From Lachnospiraceae bacterium (GTDB lineage: Bacteria; Bacillota; Clostridia; Lachnospirales; Lachnospiraceae): 64,000 nt of DNA. The DNA is taken from the NCBI GenBank assembly GCA_963643215.1, contig CAVIJY010000002.1, positions 1,073 to 65,072 on the forward strand. Reading direction: 5' to 3'. The notes under the pieces were generated by a model that saw nothing but the letters and a program-made list of their open reading frames with translations, was not told where the DNA came from and did no database searches. Positions 3,503-53,365 of the stretch are shown piece by piece (the first letter of the stretch is position 1; each line of letters begins with the position of its first letter). A program made the position numbers and the translations under genes.

Positions 3503-4590
3503 CTGATGCGCCCCTGTGTCTGTCTGTCAAAAACCAGCAGCTTCTCCGGTCTTACGGTAAACCGGATCCGATCGCCCTGCTTTGCACCCGCAGAAGCTGC
3601 CGGTACTATGCTGCGCATGACCGGAGCCTCGCATTCCGCATGACTGCACAGCAGGCTTGTATCTCTCCCCATGACCTCAACCCGCTGCAAAGTACACGAA
3701 AGCGGGCCGTCCTTATCAGGGATGAAGCCCTCAGGACGGATACATACATATACATCCTTTTCCTCTGTGCCTGACACGATGCTGCCCACAGCATTATCTC
3801 CGATGTATACTCCTGTGCCGCGTATTCTGCCTTTGAATACATTGATCTGCGGTGTTCCAAGAAATCTGGCCACAAAGAGATTAACCGGATCATCATATAC
3901 ATCCTGCGGTCTGCCTATCTGCTGAAGCTTCCCTGCGTTCATCACTATAATGAGATCTGATATGCTCATGGCCTCATCCTGATCATGAGTGACAAACACG
4001 GTTGTTATCCCGGTTTCCTTCTGTATCCGGCGTATCTCCTCACGCGTTTGCAGACGGAGTCTTGCATCAAGATTGGACAGCGGCTCGTCCAGCAGCAGCA
4101 CAGACGGCATCCTTACAAGCGCTCTCGCTATCGCCACCCTCTGCTGCTGACCTCCGGAGAGCTGCGAAGGCTTTCTGTCAAGCTGCTCCTCTATCTGCAC
4201 CAGCCTGGCGGCCTCCAGCACCTTTTCCTTCATGGCCTCCCTTGAGAGTCTCCTGTCCTTTTTTACATTTTCAAGCGGAAAACGGATATTCTGCTCCACG
4301 GTCATATGCGGATAGAGAGCGTAATTCTGGAATACCATGCCCACGCCCCGATGCTCCGGCGGCACATCTGTCATATCGGCATCATCAAACCATATATGTC
4401 CGCTTGTCGGGCTTTCCAGTCCGCATATAAGATTCAGGGTTGTGCTTTTGCCGCATCCCGACGGTCCCAGCAGTGCCACCAGCTTCCCGTCCGGAATCTC
4501 AAAGTTAAAATCATCCACGGCAGTCACAGGTCTTTGCCCTCTCTGCCTGTCAAATATCTTGGTCAGATTTTCAAGAACAACCTTCATCAT
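3499..4590 (-). CDS. ABC transporter ATP-binding protein (MalK/MsmX/UgpC-like)
   Basis: Walker [10 protein letters not shown], signature [15 protein letters not shown] and Walker B LLLDEPLSNLD. A C-terminal MalK-like regulatory domain is present. Confidence 0.9.
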   Translation of the reverse strand: MMKVVLENLTKIFDRQRGQRPVTAVDDFNFEIPDGKLVALLGPSGCGKSTTLNLICGLESPTSGHIWFDDADMTDVPPEHRGVGMVFQNYALYPHMTVEQNIRFPLENVKKDRRLSREAMKEKVLEAARLVQIEEQLDRKPSQLSGGQQQRVAIARALVRMPSVLLLDEPLSNLDARLRLQTREEIRRIQKETGITTVFVTHDQDEAMSISDLIIVMNAGKLQQIGRPQDVYDDPVNLFVARFLGTPQINVFKGRIRGTGVYIGDNAVGSIVSGTEEKDVYVCIRPEGFIPDKDGPLSCTLQRVEVMGRDTSLLCSHAECEAPVMRSIVPAASAGAKQGDRIRFTVRPEKLLVFDRQTQGRIR

Positions 4591-10372: not shown

Positions 10373-11238
10373 TATTTTACAGGAACTGCACCGGCTGCCG
10401 AGATGATCTCGCCTGCAGCCTCGGATGTCGCATAGTCGAAGAACAGCTGGGCTGCATCCGAGAGCTTTGCATCTGTCTTTGTGACAAGCACGAAGGGACG
10501 CTGTACCACATAGCTTCCGTCCTTGATGGTCTCCTCTGAGGGTGTCACTCCGCCCACATTCAGAGCCTTGACCGTATTCTTTACCGATGCAAGCGATGCA
10601 TATCCTATGGCTGCCGGATTCTGGGATACCGTCGTGATCACATCGCCTGTGGATGTGAGCTCCTGACGATACTTGCACGCATCCTTTGTTCCGGTGATTG
10701 TCTCAAAGCCGTCCCTTGTGCCCGAGCCTGCCTCGCGGCCTATAACCACAATTTCTGCATCCTCGCCTCCGAGATCCTTCCAGTTTGTGATCTCCCCTGT
10801 ATAGATCTTAGCGATGGTATCGACATCGATATCCGAGAGAGCATTATCCGGGTTGACTATGATTGCGATGCCGTCATATGCCAGAACCGTCTCCGTGAGT
10901 CCTGCCGACTTCTCATCATCCTTGAGTGCTCTTGACGAGAGACCTATATCGCAGCGTCCCTCCTGTACCGCCTGAATGCCTGAGCCCGATCCGGTCGGAT
11001 TGTAGCTGAAGCTGATCTTTGTGTCATTCTGGAACGCCTCGCCCAGAGCTCCTATAACCTTTTCCATAGATGTAGAGCCGTCTGTTGATACGCTTCCCGT
11101 AACCTGTGCCGCCGCTGCTGCCGCTGTTGTTGCGGTATCCGCTGCAGCTGATGTCTGATCTGCTGTCGATGCGGAGCATCCGGCCAGCATCGAAGAAGCC
11201 ATAAGTCCTGCCAACAAAACACTGATTGTCTTTTTCAT
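10372..11238 (-). CDS. pstS: Phosphate-binding lipoprotein PstS
   Basis: Lipobox LAGCSA and a PBP-like domain (YNPTGSGSGI, GREAGSGTRD). It is the first gene of the pst operon. Confidence 0.9.
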   Translation of the reverse strand: MKKTISVLLAGLMASSMLAGCSASTADQTSAAADTATTAAAAAAQVTGSVSTDGSTSMEKVIGALGEAFQNDTKISFSYNPTGSGSGIQAVQEGRCDIGLSSRALKDDEKSAGLTETVLAYDGIAIIVNPDNALSDIDVDTIAKIYTGEITNWKDLGGEDAEIVVIGREAGSGTRDGFETITGTKDACKYRQELTSTGDVITTVSQNPAAIGYASLASVKNTVKALNVGGVTPSEETIKDGSYVVQRPFVLVTKTDAKLSDAAQLFFDYATSEAAGEIISAAGAVPVK

Positions 11239-14841: not shown

Positions 14842-14985
14842 CATTCGGATTCTCGTGGGGCTTTTGCCCCACTTCATCCTCATTGAGAGGCGTGTCATAA
14901 ACTCTATCTCCCACCGACATGTCCCTAAAGGGACTAGCTGCGCGTCGCAGCATGTCGTGGGAGATGAGTTTTGACACTGTAATCA

Positions 14986-15562: not shown

Positions 15563-15638
15563 AAAAAAACCTCCTTCTGATATAGGAGGGGGATACAGGC
15601 GCAGAAAGCACGCCTTTCGCGCGCTCTGCAGTATCAAT

Positions 15639-15747
15639 GCTTCCTTCCGCCGGCATTATCCGGTTCAAGTTATAAGGGTCAGCCGCGACACGCACCCGGT
15701 ATCAAACCTCCGTGCATACGCCGGCCTTCTCAGCATCTGCTCCCCCA
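15639..15747 (-). promoter_or_regulatory. TPP (THI-box) riboswitch
   Basis: Minus strand reads GGGGGAGC..GCTGAGA..ACCCTTATAACTTGAACCGGATAATGCCGGCGGAAGGAAGC, which matches the THI-box core. Downstream, CCCTCCT could sequester the AGGAGG Shine-Dalgarno. Confidence 0.88.
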
Positions 15748-15825
15748 GCAATTTGGACACTTACAGTATATACAAAAAGCCTGTTAAAGCAACAGTGATT
15801 TCTTTCTTCTGCATCAACAGGTCTT

Positions 15826-17415: not shown

Positions 17416-17523
17416 CCGATTAAATCCGTGACTCAACCTGTAGCTCACACTCCCTTGTAAAGTCAGACACTTGCTACACTATAACACAGCGGACACACCG
17501 TGTCAGTGTGTCCGCGTATTTTT

Positions 17524-17609
17524 ACGCGAAGCAATGAGTCAAAGTCTGAGCTTGCTCAAGACCTTGATGAATGCCGCGATAGCGAGGGAACACGCGAAGC
17601 GTGTTCCCG
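17524..17609 (+). repeat. Intergenic repeat, family 2, copy a (opposite orientation to the other two)
   Basis: ACGCGAAGCAATGAGTCAAAGTCTGAGCTTGCTCAAGACCTTGATGAATGCCGCGATAGCGAGG plus hairpin GGGAACACGCGAAGCGTGTTCCC. It is preceded by a hairpin (17491-17513) and a T run. Confidence 0.75.
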
Positions 17610-17612
17610 AGA

Positions 17613-18182
17613 TCACACAAACTTCACTATATCATCAAAGGCCAGCTTTGGTACATAGTAGTTGCGCTCGTCATCGACCCAGTACTTCAGCTCTCCGTCC
17701 TTCGCATCTGTCAGTGTGCTGGTGCAGCCAGGCTTTCCTATGGCTATCACAAGTCTTACAGACAGCTCGTCGGGGATGGATAAAAGCTCCTTTATCCCGC
17801 TTCTGACCACATTGCCCATGATGCAGCTTCCGTACCCTTTTTCGTACAGTGAAGCAACTATGGCATGTGTCGCTATGCCTGCGTCCACATCTGCCGCGCC
17901 CGGCGCTCCTGTCTCACACACAACTATAAATGCCGTAGGCTGCTCGTCCTTATGCGGCGTTCCTACTGACGGGTCGAGAGCCGCGGCAAATCTGACCAGA
18001 GGCTGCATCCGCTCCAGCGTCTCTGATCCGTTTACTGCATAGTAGCGAAGCGGCTGTTTGTTGCTTGCGCTGTTTGCTATTCTGGCATTTTCAAGCGCAT
18101 ATCTGAGTACATCCTCAGGCACCGGATCCTGCAGAAATCTCCTGTAGGTCCTGCACCCGAGCTGTATTTCATGCATATTCAT
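17613..18182 (-). CDS. Nitroreductase-family oxidoreductase
   Basis: Nitroreductase-like sequence (CRTYRRF, NKQPLRYYAV, GSCIMGN). The start was chosen 8 nt after GGAGG. Confidence 0.75.
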   Translation of the reverse strand: MNMHEIQLGCRTYRRFLQDPVPEDVLRYALENARIANSASNKQPLRYYAVNGSETLERMQPLVRFAAALDPSVGTPHKDEQPTAFIVVCETGAPGAADVDAGIATHAIVASLYEKGYGSCIMGNVVRSGIKELLSIPDELSVRLVIAIGKPGCTSTLTDAKDGELKYWVDDERNYYVPKLAFDDIVKFV

Positions 18183-23802: not shown

Positions 23803-24675
23803 ATGGTGAATGAGATGAGCTTTACACAAAGGGATCTGACAAGACTGACCGGCATGGTCGCCGCCGGAGTCATCAGTGCATTGAACATGGTTCTGTTCGT
23901 TCAGGCCGGAGAGCTGTTTCCGGGCGGGATGGCAGGACTCACTCTGCTGCTTCAGCGGAGCGCGCTGAAGTATCTCGGTCTCGCACTACCATACTCCACT
24001 GTCAATATAGCGCTGAACGCATTTCCCGTATATATTGGCTTCAGATATGTCGGGAAAAAATTCACTCTGTTCTCGCTGTTTATGATAGTTTTAAGCAGCT
24101 TTCTGGTTGACTTCTTTGGAATATTTCAGCCATTCACAGATGACATACTTCTGATCAGCGTCTTCGGAGGCATCATCAACGGCCTTGCCAACAGCATCGC
24201 CCTGCGTCAAAACGCCAGCTTCGGCGGAACAGACTTTCTGGCCATGTACATGAATGCCAGACATGGCATGGATTCCTGGAATATGATACTCGGAATCAAT
24301 ACTGTGATACTTTGTGTTGCCGGGATACTTTTCGGATGGGACAAGGCACTATACTCCATCATATATCAGTTTGCATCTACTCAGACAGTCAAGATGCTGT
24401 ACAAGAAGTACCAGCAGATTACTCTTCTGATAGTAACCAACAGCCCGGATGAGATATGCCGTGAAATCCGGCGAACAACCGGACACGGCTCAACCATACT
24501 GCGCGCAGAGGGAGCCTATAAGCACGAAGAACGCGATATCGTCTACTCTGTGGTCAGCGCCCCCGACAAAAGGCAGGTTTTAAGCCTTGTCCACAGAATA
24601 GATCCCACCGCATTCATCAATACCATGCGCACCGAGCAGGTTCAGGGCAAATTTGTGATCGAAAAGCAGGAATAA
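23803..24675 (+). CDS. YitT-family membrane protein (DUF2179 C-terminus)
   Basis: Five or six TM helices plus a C-terminal DUF2179-like domain. It is one of only two plus-strand genes. Confidence 0.8.
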   Translation: MVNEMSFTQRDLTRLTGMVAAGVISALNMVLFVQAGELFPGGMAGLTLLLQRSALKYLGLALPYSTVNIALNAFPVYIGFRYVGKKFTLFSLFMIVLSSFLVDFFGIFQPFTDDILLISVFGGIINGLANSIALRQNASFGGTDFLAMYMNARHGMDSWNMILGINTVILCVAGILFGWDKALYSIIYQFASTQTVKMLYKKYQQITLLIVTNSPDEICREIRRTTGHGSTILRAEGAYKHEERDIVYSVVSAPDKRQVLSLVHRIDPTAFINTMRTEQVQGKFVIEKQE

Positions 24676-24689
24676 ATCTGCAAGCAGAT

Positions 24690-25286
24690 CTACTTCCGTT
24701 CATCCTTTTCTTTTTCGATCGACTTCATCTCTTCCTGCTCTATCTGCTTTGCCAGCCGCAGCGTCTGAATGATGTTCGAGGCCAGCACTGCCAGCAGCGG
24801 CAGCAATATGATCGGGAAAAATATCAGAGGATTGGAAGCCAGCCTCACAAGCTTTCCCAGCAGCAGAGACGACCATACCACCTTTCCGATGATTTCACTC
24901 TCGAATACCGGCTCATCGTCGATGCTGTGATTTGCATCACCCTTTGTCCGGAATATAAGTTCTTCGCCTGACTGCTCGATACCCACTATCCTGTGAGTAT
25001 TGACCATGCCCATGATCTGCTCATCCTTGGAATAAAAGGATATCACATCGCCCGTCCTCAGCGCACCCGGATCCTCCTCCCTGACAACTATAAACGAGTC
25101 AACCGGAAGCTCCGGCTCCATGCTGCCCGACATGACACGAAATGCCGAATATCCGAATACCTTCGGTGTATCGCCGCTCTTTGTGTTGATGGCTACAAAC
25201 AGAACATATATCGCCGCAAGAATAATTGCAATTGATATGAAATTGATGATTCCTGTTATCACTTTCCTTATCATGCTGCTTCCCAT
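24690..25286 (-). CDS. sipW: Signal peptidase I, SipW/archaeal type (copy 2)
   Basis: N-terminal TM, catalytic box VMSGSMEP, a second conserved box HRIVG, and a C-terminal TM. It is the last gene of the riboswitch R1 unit. Confidence 0.85.
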   Translation of the reverse strand: MGSSMIRKVITGIINFISIAIILAAIYVLFVAINTKSGDTPKVFGYSAFRVMSGSMEPELPVDSFIVVREEDPGALRTGDVISFYSKDEQIMGMVNTHRIVGIEQSGEELIFRTKGDANHSIDDEPVFESEIIGKVVWSSLLLGKLVRLASNPLIFFPIILLPLLAVLASNIIQTLRLAKQIEQEEMKSIEKEKDERK

Positions 25287-34078: not shown

Positions 34079-36118
34079 TCATTCCTCTGATTTACGGTTT
34101 GACGGACTGGCAAGCTGAGGCCTTGAATCCGTCTCTGACGATGTATCCGAGTTCTTATCACTGTCTTTTTTATCTGTTCCGTCCGTGGTTTTATCCGCGG
34201 GCTTAGTGCTGACATCGGCCTTCGGATCCGTGATTCCGTCTATCGTGAGATCGTTTATAAAATCCGTCTCGACATCTATGATACGGTTTACAATCATATC
34301 AGCCTGTGCATCATCGGCGAGTATCAGCGATGCATACTCCTGCCCCTCCTCGCCTGCGACTATATCGCTGTATATGATGTCTATTCTTTCTATCCTCGTA
34401 TCCTCATCAGCAGACATAAGCAGGATATAAGCGGCTATATCATCCTCTGTATATCCGTCTGCCAGCTTGCTGAGTCTGCCTCTCTCATCATATACCGCGC
34501 ATACCGTCATATCCTCGGCAACTGCGCAATACGAGGCCTTCCTCAGGAATCTCTGCGACAGCACTATGCCGACGGACACCGGTTCGTCAGAGGCTGCCGT
34601 CTCAGCCGCTGTTGTTTTCTCAGCTGCGGTTGTCTCCTCAGCTGCACTTGTCTCCGCAGACGCGGTTGTCTCTGCAGCTGCGGTTGTCTCTTCGGCTGCG
34701 GATGTTTCCTCAGCTACGGTTGTTTCCGCAGATACAGTTGTTTCTGCAGCTGTGGTTGTCTTCTCGGCTGCGCTTGTCTCCGCAGGCTTTGTCTCGGGTG
34801 TCTTTGTTATGATTCCGTCTGCGACATCATCGGCCTCAAACTCAAGACCGCTGCCGTCGCCCTTTGCAAATCTTATTCCGGCATCCTCCGGCAGCTCAAG
34901 CACCAGCTCTCCGGCTATCATATCGTCATCAAGCTTTGCCACCTTGAGACCCACAGTACCGTCCGCCATGGCACTCTCGAACACATTTCCGAGATACTCC
35001 TCCGCTGCTCCGAGCGTATCAGGCATGCCGGATATATATTTTGCCGATCCGTATATGTTTATCTGTGCATCATAGTATACGGGAGCGGCGCTCTGTCTGT
35101 ATTCCCTGATCTCCTCCGGGTCTATAAAAAGATAGCTGTCAAGATAGAGCATGGAGGCTCCTTCTGTGATATCTATGGCAGCATCCTCTCCGTCTGCACC
35201 ATCCTCGGCCATCTCGCAGGCTCTCTTAAAATCGGCCGTCCACACCGCCGCTGTCTCTGCATCTATTCCGTCTGTAATCTCGAGATCATAGCCGTCATTA
35301 CAGTATATAATCTCAGTATCGGAGGCTCCGGCCAGCTTCACCACCGCCGCGCCGTCATCGCATTCGTATTCTGCCAGCCATACATCATCTTCCGGCTCAT
35401 CATAAAAAGCAGCAGCAGGCTCCGTATATTCCAGCTCTGTCTCCATGCCGCGAACCGCAGCATAGCAGCCGTCATTGACGCTTACCATCACACTGTTTAT
35501 GCTCATATCTGTCTGGTCAAACCTGAGTATATAGTTTCTGCCGACCTCATCGATATAATAGCTGCAGGCCTCCAGTTTCTCTTCATCCAGATCTATGATA
35601 TATATGAGTTCTCCGTCATTTGCCACGACGGCTCTTTTCAGCTGATCAAGGCTTATCTCCCCGTCAGCTGCCGTCAGTGCAAGCGTATGCCCCTGCTCCT
35701 CGTATTCAGAGTCAAACGATATCCTGAGCTCTATATCCGGCTCTGACTTGCAGAAATATGTATTGATCGCTATGATCGTCTCCCGCTGCGCAGGGTTGAG
35801 CGTAAAGTCATGAAGATAGCTTTCTGTCCTGATTTTCTCGTCTTGAGCCTCGTATATCAGTCTGGCCGCATTCGACTTAAAGACATAGTTAAGAAGCAGC
35901 CTGTCGGCATCACCGTATTCTTCCTCTATCTGCCGTCCGAAGGCATCGAGAATCTCCTCGTTTACCGAGAAAAATGCCTTTCTCTCATCGCTTTCCTCTG
36001 ATGCCCATGTTCCCGGCGCAGCAGCACATATCATAAAAGCAGCAGCAAGAAGCATCGCAAGGCATCTCCTTGCGATGCGTCCGCATCTTATATATCTGTC
36101 TATGACAGATCGAAGCAT
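34079..36118 (-). CDS. Secreted acidic protein of unknown function with a conventional Sec signal; first gene of the R1 unit
   Basis: Signal ...AAAPGTWA/SEES. It is very D/E-rich, has an ETTAAE low-complexity segment and a K/D/S-rich tail. I recognise no family. Confidence 0.5.
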   Translation of the reverse strand: MLRSVIDRYIRCGRIARRCLAMLLAAAFMICAAAPGTWASEESDERKAFFSVNEEILDAFGRQIEEEYGDADRLLLNYVFKSNAARLIYEAQDEKIRTESYLHDFTLNPAQRETIIAINTYFCKSEPDIELRISFDSEYEEQGHTLALTAADGEISLDQLKRAVVANDGELIYIIDLDEEKLEACSYYIDEVGRNYILRFDQTDMSINSVMVSVNDGCYAAVRGMETELEYTEPAAAFYDEPEDDVWLAEYECDDGAAVVKLAGASDTEIIYCNDGYDLEITDGIDAETAAVWTADFKRACEMAEDGADGEDAAIDITEGASMLYLDSYLFIDPEEIREYRQSAAPVYYDAQINIYGSAKYISGMPDTLGAAEEYLGNVFESAMADGTVGLKVAKLDDDMIAGELVLELPEDAGIRFAKGDGSGLEFEADDVADGIITKTPETKPAETSAAEKTTTAAETTVSAETTVAEETSAAEETTAAAETTASAETSAAEETTAAEKTTAAETAASDEPVSVGIVLSQRFLRKASYCAVAEDMTVCAVYDERGRLSKLADGYTEDDIAAYILLMSADEDTRIERIDIIYSDIVAGEEGQEYASLILADDAQADMIVNRIIDVETDFINDLTIDGITDPKADVSTKPADKTTDGTDKKDSDKNSDTSSETDSRPQLASPSNRKSEE

Positions 36119-36160
36119 CTCCTATTTCCTTCCTGTCTGTATATCAGTATAACTCGCTCT

Positions 36161-36364
36161 GACTTTGGCTCATTGCTTCGCGTAACTGCGGAAAACTCGC
36201 CTTGCGGTTTTCCTCGTTATCGCGGCATTCACCAAGGTCCCGTGCAAGCACGTGACCGTCAAGAATCTCTCCCTTTGCCGTGGATATGCTTCGCGCATCC
36301 ACGGCTGCGTGAGCGCTTCTTGACTTCCCCGTATACGGGGACTTTGGCTCATTGCTTCGCGTAA
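36161..36364 (-). repeat. Intergenic repeat, family 2, copy b (two 25-nt direct repeats flanking a 154-nt core)
   Basis: GACTTTGGCTCATTGCTTCGCGTAA occurs at 36161-36185 and 36340-36364. The core shares CCGCGATAACGAGGAAAAC..GTTTTCC with copies a and c and has extra hairpins. Confidence 0.8.
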
Positions 36365-36475
36365 AAAAACCAGCTCACATGTAAATCTCTGTGACCTGGC
36401 AACTGGCTGGCTGCAATGCCGCAGCCCCTATAGCTTTGCGTCATCGGATCGCTCCGATTTTGCCTTCTTTTCAAT
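36363..36475 (-). promoter_or_regulatory. c-di-GMP-I (GEMM-I) riboswitch R1 with terminator
   Basis: Minus strand reads AGAAGGCAAAATCGGA-GCGA-TCCGATGACGCAAAGCTATAGGGGCTGC..GCAGCCAGCCAGTTGCC. A CCAGGTCACA..TGTGAGCTGG hairpin and T7 follow. Confidence 0.85.
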
Positions 36476-36482
36476 CGATACC

Positions 36483-36511
36483 ATGATACCATCCATTTCA
36501 GCGTAAATCAA
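36483..36511 (-). promoter_or_regulatory. Sigma-A-type promoter for R1 (TTGATT-17-TATCAT)
   Basis: -35 at 36511-36506 and -10 at 36488-36483, about 8 nt upstream of the aptamer. Confidence 0.6.
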
Positions 36512-36521
36512 GACTTCAATC

Positions 36522-38828
36522 TCATCTCTCGCATACTCTGGCAAAGAGATATCCCAGGCTTCCCATCTCTTCCTTTGTGAGTATCCGATGATTTTTCTCC
36601 ATCTCCCGCCTGATGGCTACCATGATCTCCAAGAGTCCGATGGGCACACCCTGAGCAGCTGCCAGATAAGCAGCCGTGAGCGCCACATTTTTGATGATGG
36701 CTCCGGTGAATTTAAATATCCTTGCCAGCTCACGATAGTCAACCTCCGAGGCAACCGGCGCCTGCTTCGGGAACACACTGCTCCATATCTCATAGCGGAT
36801 CTGCTCATCAGGCTCCTTGAACAGGAGATAATATCTGAATCTTCTCAGGAACGCATTATCTATGGATGTCATGTTGTTTGTCGCAAGTATCGATATCCCG
36901 TCGAATTCCTCTATGCATTGCAGCAGCAAAGAGGACTCTATATTGGCAAAACGCTCATTGGCATCCTTTGCATCCATACGCTTGTTGAATATGGAATCGG
37001 CCTCGTCAAAGAAAAGCACGCTGTTGCTCTTTTTTGCCTGATCAAATATCCTTCTGATATTCTTCTCCGTCTCTCCGACATATTTGTCTATAAGCTGAGA
37101 AAGATCTATCTTGTAAAGCTCCATCCCGAGCTCATTGGCCACGACCTGCGCAGCCATGGTCTTTCCGGTTCCGGGAGGACCTGCAAAAAGCACGGTTACC
37201 CCTGAGCCGTACGGAACCTTGCTCTCGAAATTCCACTCCTGCATGACGATATGACGGTTTCTTACAGTATCGCACACATCCCTCAGCAGCGTCTTATCTC
37301 TGGGATCCATCTTGATATCATCCCATTTAAACGGCGACTCAACCTTCTGTGTATGATCCTTGAGCGGATGCCCCATGACCGCATAGCAGCTTTTATAAAG
37401 CATCCCTCGTGATACATCCTCATGCAGAAATGCCTGTCTTGCCGCCCGGTTTATCTGTCCCGGCGTCAGTGTGAAGCTGTTGGCCAGCTGCTGTATCTCT
37501 CCCTCGGAAAGAGCAAGGCTCCTGTCGCCGCTATAGCCTCGAAGATAGTATGTCCATATCCTCGCTCTTGTGACGGCATCCGGCATCTTCACTGCAAAAA
37601 GATATACACCCTCGATGTAGTCCGGCACTGTCTCCGCCTCAATCAGCATACATACCGGAACATTCACAGATCCGGCTTTTCCTGTCAGCCAGCTTATATA
37701 CAGCTTCTGCCGATCCGCAGAGTAGCCTCCCAGCCCGGATATGACCAGCATCCTGTCTGTCACTATACACTCGCGCACCGCATACAGTGTATGATCCATC
37801 AGCACAGAGATGTCTCCGGCTGCATTTGCCTCATTCAGACACTCTCCCGCATCGTACTCTATCGCACGCATACCGGTGTCTGCCAATGCTCCTGCCGCTA
37901 TAGTGTGCTTTCCCGCTCCGCGCGCTCCCCAGAGGACAATCGGAGCTGAGTATGACCTGAGACGGCGGGCGAGACTCTCCCTGTCATCCCTCATATAAGC
38001 ATACGGAGAATCCTGCGCGGAATCGTCCTCGGACGCCGCGCCGCTCAACATATGCATACCGTACAGCAGATTCAGAGAAGCCTGAGCCGCATCCGGTATA
38101 CGTCCATATGTAAGTCCTGTCGGAAATCCTGCCGCAGAAGCACTTGCCGCAAAGCCGTTGGCCTCATCCGTCATCAGCTCGTACAGCCGCATGTCAAGCT
38201 GCGGTGTCAAGTGGAATATATCCTCTGCTCCGTCGCACTCCGGGAAGAGATATCCGAGAGAATCAGCGACCTCACTCAGCATTCTGCTCACGCGGGCTCC
38301 GCCGTAAAGCCCGTCTCCGAACAGGAGATTTACCACATCATACAGACTTTTCGCCCCCACCATCGATGCATAGTCTCTGTCCAGATATACATGATAGTAG
38401 TAAATCAATGTCTCCGTCATCCAGTCCGGAAGCAACAGCCTTTCAAGCAGTATATTCAGCGCCGGGATCTTTCCTGCCGTCACGCTGACATCCCGGCGCG
38501 CGATGATCTGGTCGGCCCACAGCTGCGCGGTCTGACCCTCTGACAGCCCCCGCATGATCAGTCTTGTGCGCAGGTATTCAATTGCTCTCACACATCGTGA
38601 CAGCTCTGTTGATTCCGGTCCCGACAGCACAGTCTCTCCCACTGCAGCATCACTCGCTGTAGCATCGCGCGGCTCAAGCATCTGCAAACCACTCTTTTCC
38701 AGAAGGCTCTGCCGCTCCTGCATGATTTCAAGTATTCTCAGGTCAACGAAAACAGACAGCTCCTCGACATATTCAAAGCTGTCTGTATATGGTCTGTCTC
38801 CTGCAAATCGTACCAACGGATCATTCAT
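36522..38828 (-). CDS. Two-domain AAA+ ATPase (degenerate D1, canonical classic-clade D2)
   Basis: D1 is LWGARGAGKHT. D2 has GPPGTGKTMAAQVVANELG, Walker B VLFFDEADSIF and ILATNN..DNAFLRRF. Confidence 0.8.
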   Translation of the reverse strand: MNDPLVRFAGDRPYTDSFEYVEELSVFVDLRILEIMQERQSLLEKSGLQMLEPRDATASDAAVGETVLSGPESTELSRCVRAIEYLRTRLIMRGLSEGQTAQLWADQIIARRDVSVTAGKIPALNILLERLLLPDWMTETLIYYYHVYLDRDYASMVGAKSLYDVVNLLFGDGLYGGARVSRMLSEVADSLGYLFPECDGAEDIFHLTPQLDMRLYELMTDEANGFAASASAAGFPTGLTYGRIPDAAQASLNLLYGMHMLSGAASEDDSAQDSPYAYMRDDRESLARRLRSYSAPIVLWGARGAGKHTIAAGALADTGMRAIEYDAGECLNEANAAGDISVLMDHTLYAVRECIVTDRMLVISGLGGYSADRQKLYISWLTGKAGSVNVPVCMLIEAETVPDYIEGVYLFAVKMPDAVTRARIWTYYLRGYSGDRSLALSEGEIQQLANSFTLTPGQINRAARQAFLHEDVSRGMLYKSCYAVMGHPLKDHTQKVESPFKWDDIKMDPRDKTLLRDVCDTVRNRHIVMQEWNFESKVPYGSGVTVLFAGPPGTGKTMAAQVVANELGMELYKIDLSQLIDKYVGETEKNIRRIFDQAKKSNSVLFFDEADSIFNKRMDAKDANERFANIESSLLLQCIEEFDGISILATNNMTSIDNAFLRRFRYYLLFKEPDEQIRYEIWSSVFPKQAPVASEVDYRELARIFKFTGAIIKNVALTAAYLAAAQGVPIGLLEIMVAIRREMEKNHRILTKEEMGSLGYLFARVCER

Positions 38829-48299: not shown

Positions 48300-49406
48300 T
48301 CAATCACCGCCGGTTGTCGTCGGAACCACTCCAACATAGCTGACCTTCACGCTCAAGCCGATGTCATCACTGTCAGACATGCCGACCATAGCCGCGCTGT
48401 CGGTACCCTCCAGCCATACATACACCTCGACATCCACTCCTGCTGTAGTCGCGGTGCAGAGCTTTGTGGTGCCTGCCTCATATATATGCTCTGATCCCGA
48501 TGACTTTTTCCCCTCATAGTCGGCCAATCCCGCGTCTCCGACTGTTATCGCAGGACTCTCAAGCTTCCATGTCGCCGAAGAGCCTGCTGTGGTTTCCTCT
48601 ACTATCGCCTTGTAGTTTGTATCTGCATCTCCGTCCGTATTACCGCTTTCGGTCTCCGCTACCGGAGCATATATGAGAAGCACATCCCCGCTTTTAATTC
48701 CTACACGAACCGCCTTTTTAAAGCTGTCCTTGCCGCTTGAGGTGCCGCTGGTATTTAAGGTTACCGTGATCGGAGCGTCCGGATTCAGATATATATCAAG
48801 ATCGCCGCTTTCGGTATACAGATTGTCGCATGTATAGTAGTACGCGGTTCTTTGCTGATTCTCAAAGGCATTCGTATAAACGCCTGATACCCCGGTTGAA
48901 TCAAGCTCGATCCCGCCGCCTGTAGTTATCTTCGTGAAGTCATCCGCCAGCGGCGCGGATATGTCCACCGTGGTGGTTGTGGTTGATCCCGAAGCGTCAA
49001 TAGTATACCCGCCCAGTCTGAAGCTGCTCGCATAGAACCAGTTCGTAAGATCATTGGTCGATATGGGATACAAGGCCGCTTCGATATTTCGTGTCACGCT
49101 TTCTGCATACTTCTTATCCTCATCCGCCTGAGCCTTCTCGCTTGACGGTCTGATATACAGGGACGGCGACGGAGTATCCGAGGTGATAGAGGAGTTGGCG
49201 CTTTCCACCTTTTTGTTGCTGGCAAACCACGCACGCGAAAGAAACGCACCCGTGGACATCCCTGCCACAAGCACGCTCACCATGATGAGCATTATCTGCT
49301 GGTGCATGCGTCTGCGCAACTGCGCGACAGACGGCACGGACTGCCCGTCCCGGACTGCCTCCTGTTCATTATCATATATGCGGTTTTTATCCCTGTTAAA
49401 CAGCAT
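48300..49406 (-). CDS. TasA/camelysin-like secreted protein with SipW-type signal; first gene of the R2 unit
   Basis: Start MLFNRDKN at 49406, after GAGGAA. Signal ...GAFLSRAWFASN. The C-terminus is VYVWLEGTDSAAMVG...LSVKVSYVG. In-frame upstream ATGs inside repeat family 2 cannot be excluded. Confidence 0.6.
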   Translation of the reverse strand: MLFNRDKNRIYDNEQEAVRDGQSVPSVAQLRRRMHQQIMLIMVSVLVAGMSTGAFLSRAWFASNKKVESANSSITSDTPSPSLYIRPSSEKAQADEDKKYAESVTRNIEAALYPISTNDLTNWFYASSFRLGGYTIDASGSTTTTTVDISAPLADDFTKITTGGGIELDSTGVSGVYTNAFENQQRTAYYYTCDNLYTESGDLDIYLNPDAPITVTLNTSGTSSGKDSFKKAVRVGIKSGDVLLIYAPVAETESGNTDGDADTNYKAIVEETTAGSSATWKLESPAITVGDAGLADYEGKKSSGSEHIYEAGTTKLCTATTAGVDVEVYVWLEGTDSAAMVGMSDSDDIGLSVKVSYVGVVPTTTGGD

Positions 49407-49426: not shown

Positions 49427-49544
49427 GACCTTGGCTCATTGCTTCGCGTAACTGCGGAAAACACGCTTTGCGAGTTTTCCTCGTTATCGCGGCGTTCATC
49501 AATGTCCTGAGCAAGCTCGGACCTTGATTCATTGCTTCGCGTAA
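49427..49544 (-). repeat. Intergenic repeat, family 2, copy c (two 25-nt direct repeats flanking a 68-nt core)
   Basis: GACCTTGGCTCATTGCTTCGCGTAA at 49427-49451 and GACCTTGATTCATTGCTTCGCGTAA at 49520-49544. The core contains the hairpin GGAAAACTCGCAAAGCGTGTTTTCC. Confidence 0.8.
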
Positions 49545-49650
49545 AAAAAATCAGCCGCTGCAAATATATATTATCTGCAACTGGCTGACTTATTCAAGTC
49601 CCTTTAGCTTTGCGTCACCGCTTCACAACGGCTTTGCCCCTCTATTTGTG
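49543..49650 (-). promoter_or_regulatory. c-di-GMP-I (GEMM-I) riboswitch R2 with terminator
   Basis: Minus strand reads GAGGGGCAAAGCCGTT-GTGA-AGCGGTGACGCAAAGCTAAAGGGACTT..AAGTCAGCCAGTTGC. The terminator is TCAGCCAGTTGCAGAT..ATTTGCAGCGGCTGA plus T8, and its 5' arm overlaps the aptamer 3' strand. Confidence 0.88.
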
Positions 49651-50329: not shown

Positions 50330-50511
50330 GCAGCTATATTATACCCGTTTCGCGTGTATTTTCAATGGTGTGTCGCGCAGAATTTTGCATGGAATAAATG
50401 TGTTTCTATCTCATTATTCGTTGTAAAAAATGTGGTTATGCAGCGAAATTTCGTCGCAATTTTTGTGATTATATATTATACTGTGCCTATATCATAAACG
50501 GAGGTGCCCAT

Positions 50512-51810
50512 ATGTACCGTATTGCAATTGAAAAGCTATCAAAATGGAAGGAAAGCAAGCATCGCAAACCTTTGATTATCGAAGGTGCCCGGCAGGTTGG
50601 CAAGACCTGGCTGATGAAAGAATTCGGCAGACAGGCTTATGCCGATACCGTATATATCAATTTTGACTCCAATTCCAGAATGACAGAGCTGTTTGCTTCC
50701 GATCTGGATACGGAGCGGCTGATAATGGGATTAGAGTTATATATCGGACGCAAAATTGATCCTGACAATTCATTGCTGATATTTGATGAAGTGCAGGAAG
50801 TCCCGAGAGCGCTAAGTTCACTCAAATATTTCTACGAGAACGCCCCTCAATATCACATCATGTGTGCAGGATCCCTGCTCGGCATCGCTATGCATCAGGG
50901 CACATCTTTCCCCGTAGGCAAGGTGGATTTTCTAAAGCTGTATCCTCTTTCTTTCAGGGAATTTCTGATGGCCACCGGCAAAGAGCATTACGCAGAATTA
51001 CTTGTTAAACAGGATTTTAAAATGATTACAGGCTTCAAGCAGACATACATCGATGCCTTGAAGCACTATTACTTTGTCGGCGGGATGCCCGAAGCGGTAC
51101 AAATTTTTGTTGAAAGTTGGGATTTTAGTGAGGTTCGCAGAATTCAAAGCGGAATCCTGGCAGCATACGAGCAGGATTTTTCCAAACATGCTCCCAATGA
51201 AATTGTTCCGAGGCTGCGCATGCTGTGGAACAGCATACCCTCGCAGCTGGCAAAAGAAAATAAGAAGTTTATCTATGGTCTTGTTCGTGAGGGTGCCAGA
51301 GCCAAAGATTATGAAACAGCAATCATGTGGCTCAGCGACTGCGGTCTCGTCCACAAGGTAAGCCGCATCAGCGCAGCGGATATCCCTTTGCGGGCACATG
51401 AGGATCTTAAAGCCTTTAAACTGTTTGTGTTGGATGTCGGACTTCTTGGCTGCATGACCGGACTGCGCCAGAGCACTTTGCTTGACGGCAATAGTCTTTT
51501 TGTAGAGTTCAAAGGCGCACTGACAGAACAGTATGTTTATCAGCAGCTCAAAACTGTCGATGGTCTAGAGGTTTATTACTACACCAACGACAGAGGATCC
51601 TGTGAGGTGGACTTTGTCGTTGATACCGGTGAAATGATTATTCCCGTAGAGGTGAAGGCAGAAGTAAACCTGAAAGCCAAGAGTCTGAAAACCTATCGGG
51701 AGAGATTTTCTCCCGAAATTTCCGTTCGCACATCCATGGCGGACTATAAAAAAGAGGACTGGCTCATCAATCTGCCGCTGTATGCTATAGATCAGATTGC
51801 GAATATATAG
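50512..51810 (+). CDS. AAA-domain ATPase with DUF4143 C-terminus
   Basis: Start MYRIAIEKL follows GGAGGTG. Walker A GARQVGKTW and Walker B LLIFDEVQ. The architecture is typical of the widespread AAA_14/DUF4143 family. Confidence 0.8.
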   Translation: MYRIAIEKLSKWKESKHRKPLIIEGARQVGKTWLMKEFGRQAYADTVYINFDSNSRMTELFASDLDTERLIMGLELYIGRKIDPDNSLLIFDEVQEVPRALSSLKYFYENAPQYHIMCAGSLLGIAMHQGTSFPVGKVDFLKLYPLSFREFLMATGKEHYAELLVKQDFKMITGFKQTYIDALKHYYFVGGMPEAVQIFVESWDFSEVRRIQSGILAAYEQDFSKHAPNEIVPRLRMLWNSIPSQLAKENKKFIYGLVREGARAKDYETAIMWLSDCGLVHKVSRISAADIPLRAHEDLKAFKLFVLDVGLLGCMTGLRQSTLLDGNSLFVEFKGALTEQYVYQQLKTVDGLEVYYYTNDRGSCEVDFVVDTGEMIIPVEVKAEVNLKAKSLKTYRERFSPEISVRTSMADYKKEDWLINLPLYAIDQIANI

Positions 51811-53218: not shown

Positions 53219-53330
53219 AAAAAAACACATCTGCACCCTTTCGAAGCACAAATGTGGCAACTGGCTGACTGAGATCCCAGTCCCTCTAGTTTTGCGTCAC
53301 AACCTCACGATTGCTTTGCCCTTATCACTT
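53219..53330 (-). promoter_or_regulatory. c-di-GMP-I (GEMM-I) riboswitch R3 with terminator
   Basis: Minus strand reads AAGGGCAAAGCAATC-GTGA-GGTTGTGACGCAAAACTAGAGGGACTGGG..TCAGTCAGCCAGTTGCC. A CACATTTGTGC..GTGCAGATGTG hairpin and T7 follow. Confidence 0.85.
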
Positions 53331-53336
53331 GGTTCG

Positions 53337-53365
53337 AGTATAACTGCTGCAATAGCTAAAATCAA
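53337..53365 (-). promoter_or_regulatory. Sigma-A-type promoter for R3 (TTGATT-17-TATACT)
   Basis: -35 at 53365-53360 and -10 at 53342-53337, with the aptamer starting about 8 nt downstream. Confidence 0.6.

Follow-up and report, generated by a model that had tools for sequence, protein, structure and literature searches.

The window analyzed here is a 64-kb stretch of contig CAVIJY010000002.1 from an uncultured Lachnospiraceae bacterium, and the element under study, R1, is a putative riboswitch for cyclic di-GMP (c-di-GMP) that precedes a long string of genes for secreted proteins. All R1 features lie on the minus strand, and coordinates are positions in the window. The unit that R1 would head extends over ~11.8 kb, from a predicted transcription start near 36476 to the last stop codon at 24690, and encodes, in this order, an acidic secreted protein, four paralogous secreted proteins, a SipW-type signal peptidase, an ATPase, a DUF2357 protein, and a second SipW-type signal peptidase. 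This same-strand string bears out the ∼11.7-kb extent and the gene order given in the original prediction for this DNA. No convincing internal terminator was found within the unit, and a convergent YitT-family gene ends at 24675, 14 nucleotides (nt) from the end of the unit. As set out below, R1 is almost certainly a c-di-GMP-I transcription attenuator, and it is probably a canonical type 2 GEMM-I attenuator that heads an autonomous ∼11.8-kb unit and is turned ON by c-di-GMP.

A search of the whole 64 kb (both strands, 4227 Rfam families, gathering thresholds) established R1 at 36474–36395 as a c-di-GMP-I (GEMM-I, RF01051) aptamer, with a score of 62.1 bits (gathering value 35) and an E-value of 9.7e-10. 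Helix P2 (AUCGGA/UCCGAU) carries a GCGA loop at 36452–36449, as the original prediction had described, and the string GACGCAAAGCUAUAGGGGCUGC named there occurs in the element. Alignment to the Rfam model revealed that P3 is without the tetraloop-receptor bulge CUAA, and R1 thus combines a GYRA-type loop with the absence of a receptor bulge, which fits the type 2 definition among class I aptamers (type 1 and type 2 are defined in PMC11218506). The nucleotides equivalent to the ligand contacts G20, A47, and C92 of Vc2, which correspond to G11, A38, and C81 of Bc1 (PMC11218506), are G36464, A36437, and C36399, respectively. When R1 was compared with two further riboswitches of the window (R2 and R3) and with the counterparts of R1 in two relatives (L128 and L129), compensatory changes were observed at 8 of the 19 consensus pairs. 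Judged by its sequence, R1 is a class I c-di-GMP riboswitch of an ordinary, already known kind, and the contact nucleotides together with the aptamer match predict that it binds c-di-GMP.

That R1 senses another ligand, either cyclic AMP-GMP (c-AMP-GMP) or whatever compound the c-di-GMP-I-UAU variant (RF03168) recognizes, is highly improbable. When the short region around R1 was searched in E-value mode, RF03168 did give the lowest E-value of the clan; however, its 58.3 bits fall short of the gathering score of that family (65.9 bits), whereas the gathering score of RF01051 is exceeded by 27 bits. Positions 20, 47, and 92 of R1 are G, A, and C, not U, A, and U, and the UAU variant was rejected on these two grounds. 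A guanine at position 20 selects c-di-GMP, whereas an adenine there is associated with c-AMP-GMP (PMC9481103), and the guanine of R1 therefore also speaks against the latter ligand.

The gene upstream of R1 is an AAA+ open reading frame (ORF) at 38828–36522 on the minus strand (PF00004, E 2.4e-34) that ends in a TGA stop codon at 36524–36522. A −35 hexamer (TTGATT, 36511–36506) begins 11 nt after this stop codon and is separated by a 17-nt spacer from an extended −10 element (TGG-TATCAT, 36491–36483), the hexamer of which lies at 36488–36483. Both the candidate promoter and its short distance from the AAA+ gene are as predicted, and transcription would start near 36476/36475.

The promoter was compared with those of relatives. 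Four relatives carry an RF01051 riboswitch at the same place before an orthologous operon, namely L128, in which the first protein of the unit is 56% identical to that of the R1 unit, and L129–L131, in which this identity is 88–91%. In L128, both hexamers, the TGn motif, and the 17-nt spacing are identical to those of R1, and the distance to the aptamer is the same, whereas the spacer itself is identical at only ∼10 of 17 positions and the sequence upstream of the −35 hexamer is unrelated. The TGn-TATCAT element is kept in L128, L129, and L130. Furthermore, the L128 block lies downstream of a 76-residue ORF and a gene without similarity to the AAA+ protein, which indicates that promoter, aptamer, and terminator belong to the operon and are not tied to the AAA+ gene, and argues that the unit is autonomous. 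The promoters of R2 and R3 are equivalent to that of R1 and stand equally far from their aptamers.

An alternative, to which only a small probability is given, is that R1 has no promoter of its own and acts as the internal attenuator of a single operon initiated at R2 (49.66–24.69 kb), the TTGATT-17-TATCAT sequence being fortuitous. A match of 9 of 12 positions is as frequent in the region as expected by chance (3 found and 2.5 expected in 2 kb), such that the R1 match taken alone is not above chance, and neither a terminator between the AAA+ stop codon and R1 nor a convincing minus-strand terminator between R2 and R1 was found. It is difficult to reconcile a fortuitous match, however, with the retention of hexamers, 17-nt spacing, and TGn in L128 behind different genes, or with the counterpart promoters of R2 and R3, whose distance to the aptamer is no different. 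Own promoter and internal attenuation are also compatible, and gating of read-through could simply add to initiation at R1: with no terminator between R1 and the AAA+ gene, any transcripts reading through from the R2 unit would be gated again by R1, a point overlooked in the original prediction.

The aptamer is followed by an intrinsic terminator at 36400–36363, confirming the hairpin and U tract that had been proposed. Its 5′ arm (GCCAG-G-UCACA, 36400–36390) and 3′ arm (UGUGA-G-CUGGU, 36379–36369) enclose a 10-nt loop (GAGAUUUACA, 36389–36380) and lead into a run of seven uridines (U7, 36369–36363). A simple terminator scan overlooked this hairpin because of the 10-nt loop and the G·G mismatch. 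Folding gave −14.5 kcal/mol for the full hairpin. The 5′ arm starts with GCC (36400–36398), which contains C92 and C93 and is the only overlap between aptamer and terminator; when GCC is withheld, the stability falls to −7.3 kcal/mol and the shortened hairpin stands 3 nt off the U tract. The terminator is kept in L128, L129, and L130. In L128, the upper stem is extended and the loop differs, but a G-to-A change keeps the bottom pair as A-U. In the minimum-free-energy fold of R1, the A-rich 5′ leader pairs with the U tract.

Comparison with type 2 members of RF01051 places R1 close to the norm in most respects. Both have a two-hairpin aptamer with the core GGCAAA...GACGCAAAGC...CAGCCAGUUGCC, G, A, and C at positions 20, 47, and 92, a GCGA loop, an intrinsic terminator as the expression platform, and an association with surface or adhesion genes. 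R1 departs from the norm in having no identifiable P1 helix, in a terminator that starts in the GCC of the binding site and does not overlap a P1 strand, and in a leader of ∼245 nt between the terminator and the start codon.

This gap, which the original prediction overlooked, precedes a first ORF that starts at 36118, and it contains a structured element at 36362–36153 that begins directly after U7, comprises ∼2.5 degenerate repeat units of ∼93 nt, and folds with a z-score of −5.7. Each unit forms two hairpins whose stems show compensatory changes between copies. The unit starts with the 23-mer ACGCGAAGCAATGAGCCAAAGTC, present in exact form at 36362–36340 and 36183–36161, and the general form of this start is ACGCGAAGCAATGAG[C/T]CAA[A/G]GTC. 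With up to 3 mismatches, the 23-mer occurs 5 times in the window (0 expected): the leaders of R1 and R2 contain two copies each, those of R2 beginning directly after a run of eight uridines (U8), and the fifth copy lies at 17524 on the plus strand. The three repeat sites (36362–36153 and 49542–49419 on the minus strand and 17521–17615 on the plus strand) all sit 0–2 nt past the T run of a hairpin that resembles a terminator. At the third site, the repeat comes right after a hairpin with T5 and occupies, in antisense orientation, the gap that separates a nitroreductase gene from a phospholipase D (PLD)-type gene.

The repeat varies between relatives. At the position of the 17.5-kb copy, hairpin and repeat are absent from a related species (L134, 3571–3672), in which the intergenic region is 102 nt long compared with 197 nt in the window. 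In L135, a strain that is 98% identical, the repeat is interrupted by an additional palindrome of 52 nt at ∼3617–3668. The leader of R1 in L128 differs after the U tract, where an assembly gap also lies, although promoter, aptamer, and terminator are the same. These three differences point to a lineage-specific and unstable element, and by its sequence the repeat is a modular intergenic element of the kind represented by repetitive extragenic palindromic (REP) sequences, BOX elements, or miniature inverted-repeat transposable elements (MITEs), lying outside the conserved riboswitch. It could be either a mobile element that seeks out terminators or an RNA module that has been co-opted. In E-value mode, an Rfam search of 36050–36530 returned only the c-di-GMP clan and no family for the repeat, and no match was found in PLSDB plasmids (blastn) or in a scan of IMG/VR. 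A scan of JGI metagenomes with the 23-mer gave 0 matches, and a mid-repeat 24-mer gave 2, both by chance inside a high-GC coding region; a scan of contigs with the 15-mer ACGCGAAGCAATGAG yielded 118 matches, all by chance, 0 of which contain the 23-mer.

A coding role for the repeat was considered, with each unit containing ATGAGCCAAAGTC, and rejected, given that the copies differ non-synonymously while the stems keep their pairing by compensation. The longest ORF after R2 (49532–48300, minus strand, 410 residues) begins inside the repeat and translates it. The real start of this first gene of the R2 unit is probably a downstream Met, such as that at 49405 or the one that precedes the hydrophobic segment, and automatic annotation would therefore over-extend the gene.

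R2 (49648–49573, minus strand, RF01051 56.2 bits) and R3 (53330–53253, minus strand, RF01051 59.0 bits) are also type 2 class I aptamers, both with GUGA loops. The R2 promoter (TTGACA-17-TAAACT, 49686–49658) is followed beyond the aptamer by a terminator hairpin at ∼49590–49551 and U8 at 49550–49543, with the repeat starting at 49542. Here, the 5′ arm of the terminator is the 3′ strand of aptamer helix P3. The unconstrained fold of R2 contains the terminator (−37.0 kcal/mol), whereas enforcing the aptamer leaves no terminator (−16.7 kcal/mol), and these models give R2 a clear, classical ON layout. R3 has a promoter (TTGATT-17-TATACT) at 53365–53337 and a terminator at 53256–53226 with U7, and it heads a gene for a 385-residue paralogue (53088–51931, minus strand).

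On the basis of these features, the following mechanism may be proposed for R1. A transcript would start near 36476 from the sigma-A-type promoter (TTGATT-17-TGnTATCAT), and the aptamer (36474–36395) would fold before the terminator. Polymerase would next meet the hairpin with its U7 tract (36400–36363), the bottom GCC of which holds the ligand-pairing C92 as well as C93. Without c-di-GMP, the full hairpin of −14.5 kcal/mol would form and most transcripts would stop at ∼36363. With c-di-GMP bound, GCC would be kept in the pocket, the hairpin would be reduced to −7.3 kcal/mol at a distance of 3 nt from the U tract, and polymerase would continue through the ∼245-nt repeat-filled leader into the genes of the R1 unit. 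For transcripts arriving from the R2 unit, R1 would be a second gate.

An ON direction for R1 is somewhat favored on several grounds: R2, which serves paralogous genes of the same locus, has a clear ON layout; withholding GCC halves the stability of the hairpin; inspection and folding turned up no sequence that could serve as an antiterminator by pairing with one of the terminator arms; and Bc2 of Bacillus thuringiensis is a known class I ON switch that controls an adhesin, the collagen adhesion protein encoded by the downstream gene cap (PMC11218506). Like R1, Bc2 is a Firmicute class I aptamer with transcriptional control of a secreted or surface gene, and its ON response has the direction proposed for R1. 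The two differ in that Bc2 has been tested experimentally and serves a single adhesin gene, whereas R1 is predicted from its sequence and belongs to a locus with three riboswitches, in which it precedes an ∼11.8-kb operon.

An OFF switch, in which c-di-GMP favors the terminator and the fiber genes are expressed at low c-di-GMP, is unlikely. It could operate, for example, if the pair between ligand and C92 stacked on the C93-G pair of the terminator, such that the terminator stem served as a surrogate P1. Aptamer and terminator can indeed coexist in R1, and fully so in R3, the 5′ leader forms no P1, and the characterized class I riboswitches of Clostridioides difficile are all transcriptional OFF switches (PMC11477304). 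On the other hand, an OFF switch lacks a ligand-free antiterminator in R1, where nothing in the aptamer pairs well with the terminator arms; pairing of the ligand with C92 requires opening of the bottom C-G pair of the terminator; and R2, which serves paralogues within this locus, has the architecture of an ON switch.

Several observations weigh against reading R1 as an autonomous ON attenuator. Aptamer and terminator of R1 are nearly compatible: enforcing the aptamer (with G20, A47, and C92 unpaired) costs only 3.2 kcal/mol, and the shortened terminator still forms. The 5′ leader showed no complementarity to the sequence that follows C92 from which a P1 helix could form, and the weak P1 candidate UUGA/UCA(C)A is broken in L130. 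The promoter, at 9 of 12 positions, is no commoner in the region than chance. One of the C. difficile class I OFF riboswitches lies upstream of an adhesin gene (PMC11477304), and Bc1, a class I riboswitch with a long expression platform, shows little response in vivo (PMC11218506). Finally, no c-di-GMP riboswitch was found within 10 kb of distant metagenomic homologues of the gene cassette (L120–L126, 35–44% identity), although in L124, L126, and L120/L121 a gene of >3500 codons extends past the stretch examined for riboswitches; riboswitch control of the cassette thus appears to be lineage-specific.

That R1 does not switch at all is improbable, and a slightly smaller chance still is given to the version in which the aptamer is intact, the terminator is constitutively leaky, and control resides in the ∼245-nt leader or at translation. 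Terminator and aptamer barely overlap, the leader combines great length with strong structure, and Bc1, with its 220-nt platform and weak in vivo response, provides a precedent (PMC11218506). However, the aptamer core and 3 of 3 contact nucleotides are kept, with compensatory changes, at 56% protein identity, whereas the leader sequence is not conserved in L128. Bc1, from the Bacillus cereus group, resembles R1 in its long stretch between aptamer and AUG (220 nt compared with ∼275 nt in R1) and in the possibility of poly(U)/poly(A) pairing, which exists in both. It differs from R1 in having two terminators instead of one, in being of type 1 (GAAA loop and receptor), and in preceding a chemotaxis gene, and R1 differs in a long leader built of a dispersed repeat.

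The presence of three same-class riboswitches within 17 kb was verified, with R1, R2, and R3 all within 16.9 kb and 3.6 and 13.1 kb apart. A tandem riboswitch was rejected as a description, since genes and promoters lie between the aptamers at these distances. The claim that the arrangement is unusually dense, by contrast, was overstated: a survey of c-di-GMP-I riboswitches reported 347 doublet and 12 triplet tandems and seven riboswitches in 7 kb in Desulfuromonas acetoxidans (PMC9481103), and a triple tandem, Bc3–5, has been characterized (PMC4759541). Three separate class I riboswitches in 17 kb are notable but not exceptional. As in these clustered and tandem cases (PMC9481103, PMC4759541), several same-class riboswitches would serve one physiological output, but R1, R2, and R3 each have their own promoter and terminator and each head a different transcription unit. 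R2 and R1 would act in series should read-through occur.

The first gene of the R1 unit (36118–34079) encodes a 679-residue protein with an N-terminal signal peptide (...APGTWA/SEE), an isoelectric point of 4.05, 149 Asp and Glu compared with 55 Lys and Arg residues, and a repeat region rich in Thr, Ala, and Glu; it matched no family in Pfam or NCBIfam. It is followed by the four paralogous secreted proteins (34074–30426; pairwise BLASTP E-values of 1e-5 to 3e-26), which comprise 304 residues counted from Met48 of the ORF (34074–33160), 288 residues (33153–32287), 296 residues (32273–31383), and 251 residues counted from Met16 (31181–30426). The sizes of the paralogue genes were compared with those in relatives. 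In all four proteins, the N-terminus is hydrophobic and closes with A-x-A-W-F/Y, and the motif [WY]LEGxDxxC lies at the C-terminus. A tandem repeat of period 26 (31358–31245; 4.4 copies, 82% matches, minus-strand unit ∼GAGAGCCGACGACAYAGCGCAAGGGT) fills the ∼200-nt gap between the third and fourth paralogue genes.

The term “TasA-like” that had been applied to these paralogues could not be verified, whereas their paralogy and SipW neighbors could. No Pfam family, including Peptidase_M73, matched at E ≤ 0.01 and no NCBIfam family at E ≤ 0.1, and a profile built from 54 paralogue homologues retrieved no TasA among PDB sequences. An AlphaFold model of a paralogue is a β-sandwich with a predicted local distance difference test score of 83.8. 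In a Foldseek comparison of this model with the PDB, no match reached E ≤ 0.001 and TasA lay outside the top 50; the archaeal bundling pilin 7ueg ranked second, but this match was not significant (E 0.022, probability 0.44, template modeling score 0.22–0.31). By analogy, the paralogues may nevertheless work like TasA, as SipW-processed, secreted, β-rich subunits.

Two SipW-type (archaeal/endoplasmic reticulum-type) signal peptidases I are encoded in the unit. The first (30400–29597) matches TIGR02228 with 104 bits (cut-off 51.85) and the SipW model with 99.9 bits and has an Ala/Gln/Glu-rich C-terminal tail; the second, encoded by the last gene (25286–24690), matches TIGR02228 with 96.3 bits and the SipW model with 112 bits. 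Between them lie the genes that had been described as a McrB- and McrC-like pair, a description for which the domain match is solid in the second member and below threshold in the first. A 577-residue, membrane-anchored ATPase (29600–27867) of AAA_5-like (MoxR/McrB/midasin) type matches AAA_5 below the Pfam cut-off (E 0.0016, 18.9 bits compared with 22); it also matches the midasin AAA domain (E 6e-4), and midasin AAA domains were the only ones found in the PDB. The 794-residue protein (27737–25353), in turn, matches the McrC N-terminal-like domain DUF2357 (PF09823) well above the cut-off (47.6 bits compared with 23.3, E 1.7e-12). No other Pfam family, and hence no nuclease domain, was detected in this protein, the remainder being a long Glu/Lys/Ala coiled coil, and its gene contains in-frame 33- and 66-nt repeats. 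The occurrence of an ATPase/DUF2357 pair inside an operon for secreted proteins was unexpected.

The R1 unit shares with the SipW-TasA/CalY operons of Bacillus the placement of SipW beside several small, secreted, β-rich paralogues and an unusual aromatic residue just past the hydrophobic N-terminus. It is distinguished from TasA/camelysin operons by the absence of sequence or significant structural similarity, and from SipW-TasA operons by its two SipW genes, the AAA_5-like ATPase, and the DUF2357 coiled-coil protein. A surface fiber or matrix system is the probable product of the unit. A full-text literature search found no paper that pairs “c-di-GMP riboswitch” with TasA or SipW.

The cassette of four paralogues, SipW, ATPase, DUF2357 protein, and SipW is conserved in several more distant loci at 35–44% identity; the gene for the 577-residue ATPase is kept in every homologous cassette, and the cassettes also retain the DUF2357 gene. 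It was seen in L120–L126 and L128–L131, which are uncultured, Clostridia-type contigs. Two side observations concern these relatives. In L128, a Clostridiales-1 RNA (127 bits, 10453–10625) lies right after the ATPase gene of the cassette, at the position expected for the DUF2357 gene. In L122, two type II hammerhead ribozymes (898–964 and 1931–2001; 50.1 and 40.9 bits) occur in a Mu-like prophage region directly upstream of the distant cassette homologue. In the window itself, a Clostridiales-1 RNA (RF01699, 115 bits) at 14985–14795 on the minus strand lies beside a thiamine pyrophosphate riboswitch (15625–15756) and a thiamine transporter gene.

Genes beyond the R1 unit tie the three riboswitches to one output. 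The locus is bounded upstream by two genes, one for a PilZ protein (55466–54786, minus strand; PF07238, E 2.3e-10) that contains the motifs RxxxR and DxSxxG, the other for an HD-GYP protein (57300–55459, minus strand; PF13487, E 7e-25) that contains HDIGK and HHERYDGGGYP. The C-terminal [WY]LEGxDxxC motif of the four paralogues recurs in the products of three more genes, namely the R3-headed 385-residue gene, the first gene of the R2 unit (the 410-residue ORF), and a 423-residue gene upstream of R3, such that seven paralogues of the locus share it. The PilZ and HD-GYP genes and the shared motif across units support well the original view that the riboswitches serve one functional locus under c-di-GMP.

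The R2 unit additionally encodes two giant paralogues (47304–38998, minus strand) of 1335 and 1407 residues, whose first ∼580 residues are 50% identical. Both share the N-terminal motif of the four paralogues, with SipW-type N-termini (ASFAWY/ASLAWY), and contain no Pfam domain. Gene calls over the corresponding stretch in relatives are 1376+407+904, 1376+719+621, or 1334+1358 residues, which suggests rapid rearrangement or frameshifts. The co-directional locus is interrupted between the R3 and R2 units by an AAA_14/DUF4143 ATPase gene on the plus strand (50398–51810). Six tandem AATAAGG copies (minus strand, 53468–53428) lie between the stop codon of the 423-residue gene and the R3 promoter.

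As a riboswitch, R1 is nothing new in kind, and what sets the locus apart is mildly unusual in four respects: three independent units of one locus each have their own class I riboswitch beside PilZ and HD-GYP genes; R2 and R1 stand in series, and no terminator comes between them; the platform of R1 and R3 lacks P1 and overlaps the terminator minimally; and the regulated genes form an uncharacterized SipW-associated cassette. A more far-reaching reading, which is put forward only tentatively, is that ∼57.3–24.7 kb represents an undescribed, self-contained c-di-GMP module. In such a module, three type 2 GEMM-I riboswitches together with PilZ and HD-GYP proteins may govern a new SipW-dependent fiber or adhesin system. 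Its core, made up of the four β-sandwich paralogues, both SipW peptidases, the membrane AAA_5 ATPase, and the DUF2357 coiled-coil protein, recurs in uncultured Clostridia and has no sequence relationship to TasA. The P1-less platform of R1 and R3 may be an unusual one in which the ligand-pairing C92 and C93 form the base of the terminator, and, separately, the leader repeat could be mobile or co-opted.

The value of R1 lies in marking ∼33 kb of otherwise unannotatable genes as c-di-GMP output, given that the secreted and giant proteins of the locus have no Pfam or NCBIfam match and that of the ATPase, to AAA_5, is weak. The succession of R2 and R1 would provide a natural case in which to ask whether two same-ligand riboswitches on one long transcript sharpen the response, as tandems do. 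The conserved cassette of SipW, secreted paralogues, AAA_5 ATPase, and DUF2357 protein merits characterization, and, as a c-di-GMP output, the locus is probably a surface, matrix, or adhesion system of this organism.

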